Assembly (NCBI RefSeq): GCF_000027125.1
Contig: NC_017626.1
Length of the DNA: 64,000 nt
Origin: Escherichia coli 042
Lineage (GTDB): Bacteria; Pseudomonadota; Gammaproteobacteria; Enterobacterales; Enterobacteriaceae
Strand: one strand, 5' to 3'
Shown here: positions 2,608-41,716 of the stretch, one piece after another
Numbering within the stretch: the stretch's first letter is position 1
Layout of the letters: every line of letters begins with the position of its first letter
Notes under the pieces: model-generated
What the model was told of the DNA's origin: nothing
Databases searched by the model: none
The model's input: only the letters and a program-made list of their open reading frames with translations
Position numbers and translations under genes: made by a program

Positions 2608-4260
<1,653 letters not shown>

Positions 4261-4472
4261 TTAGGTTGAAAAGACGATGGAATAACCAGGACGGGAAAGC
4301 AGTATACCCGAACATGACCTGTGCCACAAACTTTCATTATCCCTCCTCTTCGCCAGCGCACTATTGAAATCAGGAGTGAGAAAATAGCCCCTTTGGGGTA
4401 AATGTTTTTGACGCAAATCAAGCGCTTGTCATTTAAAAAATGACACAAATCGCGCTTGACCACGTAATTCCC

Positions 4473-5264
4473 TTAGAGATCAATTTCCTGCCGTTTTACC
4501 TGTTGCCAGACTTCTTCCATTGTTTCGAGGTCAACACCTGTCATTTCCAGTCCACGCGCGGCAACAATACGCTCCACTTCGCGAAAACGGCGCTCGAATT
4601 TTTCATTGGCTTTTTGTAGTGCAATCTCTGCTTTTGTCCCTAAATGGCGTGCCATGTTGACCGTGGCAAACAGCAGGTCACCCATTTCCTCCTCCAGTTT
4701 AGCCTGGTCGATAACAGCCTGCCGCGCCTCGTACATCACCTCGTCGATCTCTTCGTAGACTTTATCGACTACCGGACCAAGCGTCGTCCAGTCGAAACCA
4801 ACGTTGGCGCAACGTTTCTGGATTTTTTGCGCACGCATTAAAGCCGGTAAACTACGAGGAATATCGTCCAGCGCTGAATGCTGCGCTTTCTGCGCGCGCT
4901 CTTCGGTTTTGATTTGCTCCCAACGGGTAAGCACTTCACTACTGTTTTCGGCAGAACTGTCAGCAAAAACATGCGGATGGCGACGCTCTAATTTATCGCT
5001 AATAGCAGCGCAAATATCATTAAAGTCAAAGCGCCCTTCTTCCTGAGCCATTTGCGCGTAAAACACCACCTGGAATAGCAGATCGCCCAGTTCACCGCGA
5101 AGATCGTCAAAATCTTCACGGGCGATGGCGTCCAGCACTTCGTAGGTTTCTTCAAGGGTGTAAGGCGCAATGGTGGCAAATGTCTGCTCTTTATCCCACG
5201 GGCAGCCGTTTTCCGGGTCGCGCAGGCGCTGCATAATAGTGAGCAAACGGTCGATTTGATTCAT
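4473..5264 (-). CDS. mazG: Nucleoside triphosphate pyrophosphohydrolase MazG
   Basis: 263-aa ORF with tandem MazG domains; synteny downstream of relA. Confidence 0.92.
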   Translation of the reverse strand: MNQIDRLLTIMQRLRDPENGCPWDKEQTFATIAPYTLEETYEVLDAIAREDFDDLRGELGDLLFQVVFYAQMAQEEGRFDFNDICAAISDKLERRHPHVFADSSAENSSEVLTRWEQIKTEERAQKAQHSALDDIPRSLPALMRAQKIQKRCANVGFDWTTLGPVVDKVYEEIDEVMYEARQAVIDQAKLEEEMGDLLFATVNMARHLGTKAEIALQKANEKFERRFREVERIVAARGLEMTGVDLETMEEVWQQVKRQEIDL

Positions 5265-18096: not shown

Positions 18097-18141
18097 AAAG
18101 CAACCTCAATAAGAAAAACTGCCGCGAAGGATAGCAGGAAT

Positions 18142-18507
18142 AAAAAAAGGGAGCACTGTATTCACAGTGCTCCCGGTTCGTTTCGCAGCATTCCAGCTAC
18201 TTTTGTTGCTCCCTGCTCATCCTTGACAACTTTTCCTCTGGCCTTGCGGCCAATCGTTCATCCTGAACTATTGCTTCCTGCTCACACCACCCCGATGTGA
18301 TACTTCATCCTGAAGTGTCCCTGGCCTTCCTGGCCCACCGAATCATCCTGACCGGTTCTCATTCTCCATCCTGGAGGTGTCCTTTAACGCGTCCTGCGTC
18401 ATCCTCTTCGCTTCATCCAGAAGCCTTTCCCTGAAACACCATCCTGGTGTGTCCTTCAGAAGTGTCATCATCCTGATGTTCACTTCGTTGTCTGACTCCC
18501 TGTCGAC
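18142..18507 (-). ncRNA. csrB: CsrB small RNA (CsrA-sequestering sRNA)
   Basis: Minus strand begins GTCGACAGGGAGTCAGACAACGAAGTGAACATCAGGATG and carries at least 10 CAGGA(U/A)G-type GGA motifs; ends in hairpin gggagcactgtgaatacagtgctccc plus U-run at 18149-18174. Confidence 0.85.
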
Positions 18508-35681: not shown

Positions 35682-36599
35682 TTATTGTTCATAACGAAAG
35701 CGGAATTTTTCTTGTTCAGCAGCGGCTTTCGCCAGGATCCATTGACGAAAGGCGGCTATTTTACCCAGTTCTGCCTGACTGTCATGACAAACCAGATAAA
35801 AAGCATTTTTACTGACCAGAACATCATTAAACGGGCAAACAAGACGTCCGGCCTCGATTTCAGATTGCGCCATCACGTTATTTGCCAGCGCCACTCCCTG
35901 CCCGTGAATAGCCGCTTGCAGCACCATGGCGCTATGGCTAAAAATTGGCCCTTGCTGAACGTTGATATGATTTAACCCCAATTGGCGAGTATATGTCTGC
36001 CAGTCACGGCGTGACGCATCATGTAATAACGTATGTTTAGCCAGATCTTCCGGGGTCTTCAAGGGTTTTTCGCCAGTCAGCAGTAGCGGCGAACACACCG
36101 GCAATAAATATTCGGCGTAAAGTTTTTCCACCCGTAGCCCCGGCCAGTTGCCCCGACCATAAAATATCGCCACATCAACATCATCCGCCAGCTTATCTTC
36201 CTGACGATCAACCGCCTGGATTCGAACGTCAATTCCCGGATAAGCTGAATTAAAGCTGGAAAGTCGCGGAACCAACCAATGAATGGCGAAACTGGGGAGT
36301 AAACTGACCGTCAACGCCCCCTTGGCGCTACGGGCCTGGAGTTTACGCGTCGCTTCGGTTAATTGCGAAAATATCTCTTTGATATCGAGGAAATAGCTTT
36401 GACCTTCCTCGGTCAGCAGGAGTGAACGATTACGGCGGCGGAACAGTTTTAGCCCCAGAAAATCCTCAAGAGACTTGATTTGATGACTTACTGCGGCCTG
36501 GGTCACAAAAAGCTCTTCTGCTGCGCGAGTGAAACTTAAATGGCGTGCTGCGGCATCAAAAACTCGTAAGGCATTTAGCGGTGGTAATCGTTTAGACAT
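35682..36599 (-). CDS. gcvA: LysR-family regulator of the glycine cleavage system
   Basis: 305-aa ORF, MSKRLPPLNALRVFDAAARHLSFTRAAEELFVTQAAVSHQI HTH. Confidence 0.93.
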   Translation of the reverse strand: MSKRLPPLNALRVFDAAARHLSFTRAAEELFVTQAAVSHQIKSLEDFLGLKLFRRRNRSLLLTEEGQSYFLDIKEIFSQLTEATRKLQARSAKGALTVSLLPSFAIHWLVPRLSSFNSAYPGIDVRIQAVDRQEDKLADDVDVAIFYGRGNWPGLRVEKLYAEYLLPVCSPLLLTGEKPLKTPEDLAKHTLLHDASRRDWQTYTRQLGLNHINVQQGPIFSHSAMVLQAAIHGQGVALANNVMAQSEIEAGRLVCPFNDVLVSKNAFYLVCHDSQAELGKIAAFRQWILAKAAAEQEKFRFRYEQ

Positions 36600-36727
36600 G
36601 GCTTTTAAACTTTGATGTTAAATGAATTTAACAATTAGATCACACTGTGTAACCTATTAGTTTTTTTAATCTGAGCCATTATAAATTGTCCGTTGAGCTT
36701 CTACCAGCAAATACCTATAGTGGCGGC

Positions 36728-36933
36728 ACTTCCTGAGCCGGAACGAAAAGTTTTATCGGAATGCGTGTTCTGGTGAACTTTTGGCTTACGGTTGTGATGT
36801 TGTGTTGTTGTGTTTGCAATTGGTCTGCGATTCAGACCATGGTAGCAAAGCTACCTTTTTTCACTTCCTGTACATTTACCCTGTCTGTCCATAGTGATTA
36901 ATGTAGCACCGCCTAATTGCGGTGCTTTTTTTT
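36728..36933 (+). ncRNA. gcvB: GcvB small RNA, divergent from gcvA
   Basis: ACTTCCTGAGCCGGAACGAAAAG start, GU-rich repeats (gttgtgatgttgtgttgttgtgtttg), two hairpin/U-run terminators, the last ending in T8 at 36926-36933. Confidence 0.85.
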
Positions 36934-36949: not shown

Positions 36950-37177
36950 TTACTGATCCAGTTCGACCATCTCTTTCACGTCGGTACGGTTGATCTGCTG
37001 TTTGTTGCCATTAGCGTCTTTATACGAAATCATACCGGTATCGTTATCAGTCTGTGGTTTGCCGTCAGAGACGATGGTACGTCCGTCATTGGTGTGCATC
37101 ACATAGTTCGAACCGGAACAGGCGCCCAGGGCAAAAGTCAGCATACAGGCAGAAATAATTGCGGCAGTCTTTTTCAT
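36950..37177 (-). CDS. ygdI: DUF903 lipoprotein YgdI
   Basis: Short ORF with lipobox (LTFALGACSG). Confidence 0.75.
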   Translation of the reverse strand: MKKTAAIISACMLTFALGACSGSNYVMHTNDGRTIVSDGKPQTDNDTGMISYKDANGNKQQINRTDVKEMVELDQ

Positions 37178-37368
37178 CATCTTCTCCTTAAAGCGATTAA
37201 TAAATCTTAATAGTATTGATTAACAGGCTAAAATTAACGCCTAACACTATTCAGCATATGTTACTTACGCGGCTTCGCCAGGATATCCAGATAATTCTGA
37301 TGGTTAGCACTCTCCTTGTATCAAAGTGAATTTTGCGTCACGATCGGTTCATCAAGCCGAGGAGTACC

Positions 37369-39927: not shown

Positions 39928-40025
39928 GCCTGATGCGCTACGCTTATCAGGCCTACATAACTCCTGCAATATTTTGGATTTGCATGATTTGTAGGCCGGA
40001 TAAGGCGTTCACGCCGCATCCGGCA
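39928..40025. repeat. Pair of REP elements (BIME-like) in the mltA-tcdA spacer
   Basis: gcctgatgcgctacgcttatcaggcctaca (39928-39957) and tgtaggccggataaggcgttcacgccgcatccggca (39990-40025). Confidence 0.6.
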
Positions 40026-41418: not shown

Positions 41419-41495
<77 letters not shown>

Positions 41496-41528
41496 ATTAA
41501 AATTTGATGAAGTAAAGCAGTACGGTGA

Positions 41529-41605
<77 letters not shown>

Positions 41606-41639
41606 ATCAAAATTTGATGAAGTAAAAGCAGTACGGTGA

Positions 41640-41716
<77 letters not shown>

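Follow-up and report, generated by a model that had tools for sequence, protein, structure and literature searches.

The gap between gcvA and ygdI in Escherichia coli 042 carries the known gcvB small RNA gene

Introduction

Does the 350-bp gap between gcvA and ygdI in the stretch of Escherichia coli 042 DNA analysed here (64,000 nucleotides, hereafter the window) hold the gene for the small RNA GcvB, and does anything in that gene or its control region depart from what is known in E. coli K-12? The noncoding RNA GcvB is about 200 nt long, and most of the 54 genes in its regulon serve amino-acid transport and metabolism (PMC9299463). In most E. coli genomes automated RefSeq annotation leaves this gap empty, and a scan limited to open reading frames would therefore miss a regulator of more than 50 genes. 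A preliminary description made from the sequence alone had placed a GcvB RNA here, divergent from gcvA, with a single-stranded GU-rich region and two terminators of the hairpin/U-run type. Here we examined what the RNA is and where its ends lie, how it folds, how well it and its gene order are conserved, what promoter and terminator signals it has, and how far its R1 region is complementary to two classic targets.

The gap encodes a full-length GcvB RNA

The whole window was scanned with the covariance models of all 4227 Rfam families. The GcvB model (RF00022) scored 199 bits at 36728-36933, on the plus strand only (gathering score 42, E = 1.1e-46), and the match was full length, spanning model positions 1-204 of 204; it lies at exactly the position proposed beforehand. 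The 5' end of GcvB, ACTTCCTGAGCCGGAACGAAAAG, is located at 36728-36750. In the alignment to E. coli gcvB, 206 of 206 bases were identical to the ncRNA gcvB of K-12 MG1655 (b4443, NC_000913.3 2942696-2942901), and both ends coincide. Folding of the 206-nt RNA gave -62.1 kcal/mol, compared with a mean of -47.1 for dinucleotide-shuffled sequences (z = -3.63), and was more stable than all 200 shuffles. The structural and covariance signal is far beyond chance, and the RF00022 match together with complete identity to K-12 already settles what the RNA is.

The gene and its two neighbors, in window coordinates, are:

35682-36599, minus strand: gcvA, encoding the LysR-family activator of gcvB (NF008352 GcvA, 512.8 bits, cutoff 288; K-12 annotation)
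36728-36933, plus strand: gcvB, the 206-nt GcvB sRNA, which runs from +1 through the t2 U-run (RF00022 and K-12 identity)
36950-37180, minus strand: ygdI, a lipoprotein gene (NF033216, 111.4 bits)

The gcvB gene thus occupies the gcvA-ygdI gap in the orientation that had been described: it is divergent from gcvA, with 128 nt between the gcvA ATG and the gcvB +1, and convergent with ygdI, whose stop codon lies 17 nt from the gcvB 3' end. Gene order (rlmM-ygdD-gcvA / gcvB / ygdI-csdA-csdE, with csdA and csdE on the plus strand) is the same as in K-12 MG1655, and the curated K-12 record has ncRNA gcvB between gcvA and ygdI. The start of ygdI is ambiguous by one codon: the ORF as called begins with an ATG at 37180 (76 aa, MMKK...), and K-12 annotates 37177 (228 nt, 75 aa).

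Among 5426 complete E. coli genomes, the 206-nt sequence was present in 5425, at 99% identity or more in 5389; one genome had no gcvB match and a few others had matches that were partial or of low identity. Most of these RefSeq genomes have no annotated feature beneath the match, in agreement with the earlier remark that ORF calling does not capture the gene. In one strain, the bovine isolate OkiPb01677 (NZ_AP042483.1, locus 3001-4560), gcvB is broken after nt 125 by an IS4-like element of the ISVsa5 family whose transposase CDS lies at locus 3233-4441; the disruption would strip R2, R3 and t2 from the transcript, leaving R1 and most of SL3. A second copy or variant of gcvB, which such a split match might suggest, was rejected, since the split is this insertion in another strain and is irrelevant to the window.

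Further RNA matches were obtained elsewhere in the window. The CsrA-sequestering sRNA CsrB is present at full length at 18139-18498 on the minus strand (RF00018, 383.9 bits, E = 1e-111). Three tandem tRNA-Met (CAU) genes lie at 41419-41716 on the plus strand (Rfam, 61.4 bits each, with starts 110-111 nt apart); their position and sequence fit the E. coli metZ-metW-metV initiator tRNA cluster. A short, 43-nt match to ES036 (CssrF) at 39949-39991 on the minus strand is barely over its threshold (RF02751, 46.5 bits, gathering score 37.6).

Stem-loops, seeds and terminators

The RNA resolves into the following elements:

36734-36788, plus strand: SL1, the long 5' hairpin (Rfam structure line; MFE and centroid folds)
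36790-36818, plus strand: R1, the G/U-rich single-stranded seed GGTTGTGATGTTGTGTTGTTGTGTTTGCA, GcvB nt 63-91 (sequence; unpaired in the Rfam consensus)
36822-36838, plus strand: SL2, GGTCTG-CGATT-CAGACC (Rfam structure; MFE and centroid folds; folds of each homologue)
36841-36861, plus strand: SL3 with T6, the internal Rho-independent terminator t1 (terminator scan; hairpin 36841-36855, then TTTTTT)
36862-36877, plus strand: R2, the conserved CACTTCCTGTACATTT, GcvB nt 135-150 (near-invariant in the alignment)
36878-36899, plus strand: R3 seed in SL4, about GcvB nt 151-172 (invariant block; boundaries approximate)
36905-36933, plus strand: SL5 with T8, the terminal Rho-independent terminator t2 (terminator scan; AGCACCGC-CTAATT-GCGGTGCT, then TTTTTTTT)

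The GU-rich single-stranded region noted previously is R1, which lies between SL1 and SL2 and is almost wholly unpaired in the centroid fold as well. In published work, R1 is the main target-pairing region and serves most targets, the three seeds being R1, R2 and, within SL4, R3, and the sole use of R2 is probably the repression of cycA (PMC9299463). The conserved R2 sequence CACUUCCUGUACAUUU is present at 36862-36877. The R3 mutations G156C, G160C and C162G have been published (PMC9299463); the corresponding sites here are G36883, G36887 and C36889, and since G156, G160 and C162 thus fall on G, G and C, the published GcvB numbering fits the window. The sponge RNA SroC pairs in SL1 and SL4 (PMC9299463).

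Both hairpin/U-run terminators of the preliminary description were recovered: t1 is followed by T6, and t2 consists of a hairpin (36905-36926) with a stem of eight pairs, six of them G-C, followed by T8. Hfq binding typically depends on a Rho-independent terminator that ends in a 3' poly-U tail and on U-rich or A/U-rich stretches left single-stranded within the RNA. The RNA has sequence features of this kind, namely the terminal hairpin followed by U8 and the internal U6 after SL3, and binding of GcvB to Hfq has been published (PMC9299463, PMC4474525). In E. coli, t1 and t2 give RNAs of 130 and 206 nt, with about 90% of transcripts ending at t1 and about 10% at t2, and the 206-nt form is needed to repress oppA and dppA (PMC1557403).

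Conservation across Enterobacterales

Relatives were gathered by an exact-pattern scan, with one genome per species, for the R1 motif GTTGTGATG-N(0-12)-TTGTGTTTGCA, which returned at least 120 loci. At least 107 of the loci listed have a recognizable gcvB 5' end, and all of these belong to Enterobacterales (about 100 species). Genera among the matches listed include Yersinia, Serratia, Photorhabdus, Xenorhabdus, Proteus, Providencia, Morganella, Edwardsiella, Hafnia, Rahnella, Erwinia and many Enterobacteriaceae. About a dozen pattern matches in Firmicutes, Bacteroidota and an archaeon lacked the gcvB 5' motif and were discarded as chance. For the matches listed, the restriction to Enterobacterales is a lower bound on the range. 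In addition, the R1 pattern cannot detect homologues in Pasteurellaceae or Vibrionaceae; gcvB homologues in both families have been published, and their R1 differs.

Conservation of R1 itself is circular in this set because the relatives were collected by means of the R1 pattern. The search pattern does not cover R2, the t2 stem or the R3/SL4 block CACTTCCTGTACATTTACCCTGTCTGTCCATAGTGATT, yet all three are fully or almost fully conserved across 95 aligned sequences from the matches listed, and in the same 95 the t2 loop varies while its stem is invariant. A plain MAFFT alignment of the 95 sequences analysed with RNAalifold gave only 26 consensus pairs, two of them with compensatory changes, a result that is weak and not contrary to the structure, since MAFFT shifts the SL1 apex and the SL2 register between clades. 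An alignment-free fold of each sequence, in segments set by conserved anchors, was therefore used in its place. Among the matches listed, an SL1 hairpin of 10-19 pairs was recovered from every one of the 97 homologues (71 distinct sequences), and the segment from R1 to R2 forms exactly two hairpins, SL2 and SL3, again in all 97 (79 distinct sequences). In SL2, clear compensatory changes from U-A to C-G were observed in other genera, for example GTCTGG/CCAGAC against GTCCGG/CCGGAC.

R1 varies in length within this set. Compared with the RF00022 consensus, copies from Enterobacteriaceae (E. coli, Salmonella, Citrobacter, Enterobacter, Klebsiella and others) carry eight extra nucleotides (uuguguug), which are absent from those of Yersinia, Serratia, Proteus, Photorhabdus and Edwardsiella. 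The main seed seems to have expanded specifically in the Enterobacteriaceae lineage, giving this longer R1.

The genomic context is conserved on the gcvA side. Among the matches listed, every one of the 99 loci with sufficient flanking sequence has gcvA upstream in divergent orientation; the median distance from its ATG to +1 is 128 nt, as in the window, and a convergent ygdI follows downstream in 76 of 107. The remaining 31 of the 107 keep gcvA next to gcvB without a ygdI-like gene downstream, an arrangement that speaks against reading the region as nothing more than a ygdI 3' UTR with its terminator, or as the leader of gcvA, with an incidental resemblance to GcvB. That reading could draw on the t2 hairpin, which is on the opposite strand, 17 nt past the stop codon of ygdI, and on the gcvA promoter, which shares the same intergenic region. 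The RF00022 match, however, covers all 204 model positions on the plus strand only, while ygdI and gcvA are both on the minus strand; on that strand the t2 hairpin is followed by ACATTAAT, which contains no U-run; and the curated K-12 annotation lists an ncRNA here. We consider the odds of a mere UTR or leader to be vanishingly small. A bidirectional t2 that would also terminate ygdI was likewise rejected, being unsupported because the minus-strand hairpin lacks a following U-run.

A second alternative, that GcvB is a dual-function RNA which also encodes a small protein, concerns an ORF of 46 codons at 36761-36901 on the plus strand, which runs from ATG to stop inside the gcvB RNA. Its length is held at 44-46 aa in 35 of 96 homologues among the matches listed, all of them close relatives within Enterobacteriaceae; in the other 61, however, the longest ATG-initiated ORF reaches only 0-43 aa, and the ORF is therefore not conserved where the RNA is. 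Its ATG falls in the region of the SL1 apical loop without a properly spaced Shine-Dalgarno sequence (the upstream sequence is GAACGAAAAGTTTTATCGGA), and its frame crosses R1 and both internal hairpins, whose conservation pattern is that of RNA structure. PMC1557403, citing Urbanowski et al. 2000, reports that gcvB RNAs are not translated, lacZ translational fusions having been negative. On these grounds (poor conservation in the family, no spaced Shine-Dalgarno sequence and published non-translation) the ORF was rejected as a coding gene, and we regard a coding role as extremely improbable. If it were translated, GcvB would be a dual-function RNA.

The shared control region of gcvA and gcvB

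Two elements were located upstream of the RNA:

36656-36670, no strand assigned: dyad ATTAGTTTTTTTAAT, ATTA-N7-TAAT, at -72 to -58 of gcvB (nearly every position at least 95% conserved)
36693-36721, plus strand: gcvB promoter-like site, with -35 TTGAGC at 36693-36698, a 17-nt spacer and -10 TATAGT at 36716-36721 (consensus scan)

The sigma-70-like promoter ends 7 nt before the +1 (A36728). Across 94 distinct Enterobacterales upstream sequences from the matches listed, nearly all positions of the block at 36656-36727 (-72 to +1), which includes both hexamers and the dyad, show 95% conservation or more. The dyad has the T-N11-A form that is typical of LysR-family operators. The type of motif, together with the published GcvA-dependent activation of gcvB (PMC1557403), suggests that the dyad at 36656-36670 is a putative GcvA recognition site. 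According to the same paper, which cites Urbanowski et al. 2000, gcvA raises gcvB::lacZ expression about 400-fold (PMC1557403), and GcvB has been described as transcribed divergently from gcvA, controlled by GcvA and GcvR, and induced at high glycine (PMC9299463).

Between 36600 and 36960 the window is identical to K-12 at 359 of 361 positions. The two differences, 36604 (T for A) and 36647 (G for A), both lie between gcvA and gcvB, and as the sole differences in the 361-bp stretch they are what could make regulation of gcvB here unlike that in K-12. Both, however, occupy poorly conserved columns upstream of and outside the conserved -72 to +1 block; 36604 belongs to the gcvA leader, just 5 nt away from the start codon of gcvA, and is not close to the gcvB promoter elements. 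The window allele moreover recurs at 100% identity across many unrelated strains of E. coli, among them O157:H7 and ATCC 11775, the type strain, and is therefore a common natural variant. Regulation that differs from K-12 on account of these substitutions is accordingly very unlikely. Neither translation of the 46-codon ORF nor an effect of the allele has positive support here, and we give only a slight chance to the proposition that either the ORF is translated under some condition or the 36604 T/36647 G allele alters expression of gcvA or gcvB.

Expected mechanism and target pairing

We conclude with near certainty that 36728-36933 is the canonical E. coli gcvB gene, with GcvA/GcvR control, Hfq-dependent repression of targets and SroC-dependent decay; no observation made here speaks against this. 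Its control by GcvA and GcvR, Hfq dependence, regulon and relation to SroC are taken from the literature, and the published mechanism applies directly, as the window and K-12 RNAs have one and the same sequence. RNA polymerase would start at A36728 from the sigma-70-type promoter, which would depend on the LysR-type GcvA encoded divergently 128 nt away. At low glycine, GcvR (encoded elsewhere in the genome) would make GcvA a repressor, and the RNA would therefore be expected to accumulate in rich medium and at high glycine. Transcripts would stop at t1 (the form of about 130 nt) or continue to t2 (the 206-nt form). Once bound to Hfq, the full-length RNA would use R1, R2 and the R3 seed in SL4 to pair with more than 50 mRNAs, at C/A-rich sites that lie within or close to their translation-initiation regions. 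Most of these mRNAs encode amino-acid and peptide transporters and biosynthetic enzymes (e.g. dppA, oppA, cycA, gdhA and ilv), and the pairing would block translation and promote mRNA decay. Pairing of the sponge SroC with SL1 and SL4 would lead to RNase E cleavage and removal of GcvB; degradation of GcvB by RNase E after SroC pairing at these two sites has been published (PMC9299463).

The pairing step was examined in silico for R1 (nt 63-91), using the dppA and oppA leaders of K-12. The predicted duplex with the dppA leader (-44 to -11) had an energy of -26.2 kcal/mol, which was matched by 13 of 300 dinucleotide-shuffled leaders, and that with the oppA initiation region (-10 to +14) had -23.1 kcal/mol, matched by 7 of 300. 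Predicted pairing was thus stronger than for 96-98% of shuffled leaders; the test is only moderately significant because the shuffles retain the C/A-rich dinucleotide content. These predicted duplexes modestly back the R1 pairing step.

Comparison with known GcvB RNAs

The gcvB of the window is a gene already known, found where it normally lies and with the sequence it normally has, and nothing about it is new. The preliminary description proved right in what it observed, in its coordinates and in how it read them. Its recognition matters for complete annotation only and advances no open question. With respect to E. coli K-12 GcvB (b4443), it is the same gene, with 206 of 206 bases, both ends, the neighbors and the orientation in common; the RNA shows no difference, and the two upstream substitutions (36604, 36647) are at non-conserved positions.

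GcvB of Salmonella enterica has the same five-stem-loop architecture, the same R1, R2 and R3 seeds and the same gcvA-divergent locus, and the copy from Salmonella arizonae aligns over its full length with the window gcvB. The Salmonella RNA differs by a few substitutions, mainly in SL1, in the loops of SL2 and SL3 and in the t2 loop; the Salmonella and E. coli RNAs have been reported to be 10 nt apart, with almost the same structure and function (PMC9299463).

The gcvB of Yersinia pestis is about 77% identical to the E. coli gene and gives RNAs of about 130 and 206 nt (PMC1557403). It is likewise divergent from gcvA, activated by GcvA, repressed by GcvR and equipped with both t1 and t2, and it represses dppA (PMC1557403). 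All hairpins are retained in the Yersinia copies of our alignment, whereas their R1 is shorter, lacking the 8 nt of the Enterobacteriaceae copies, and the apical sequence of SL1 also differs. In addition, t1 is weaker in Y. pestis, where the two isoforms are roughly equal, in contrast to the approximately 90% termination at t1 in E. coli (PMC1557403).
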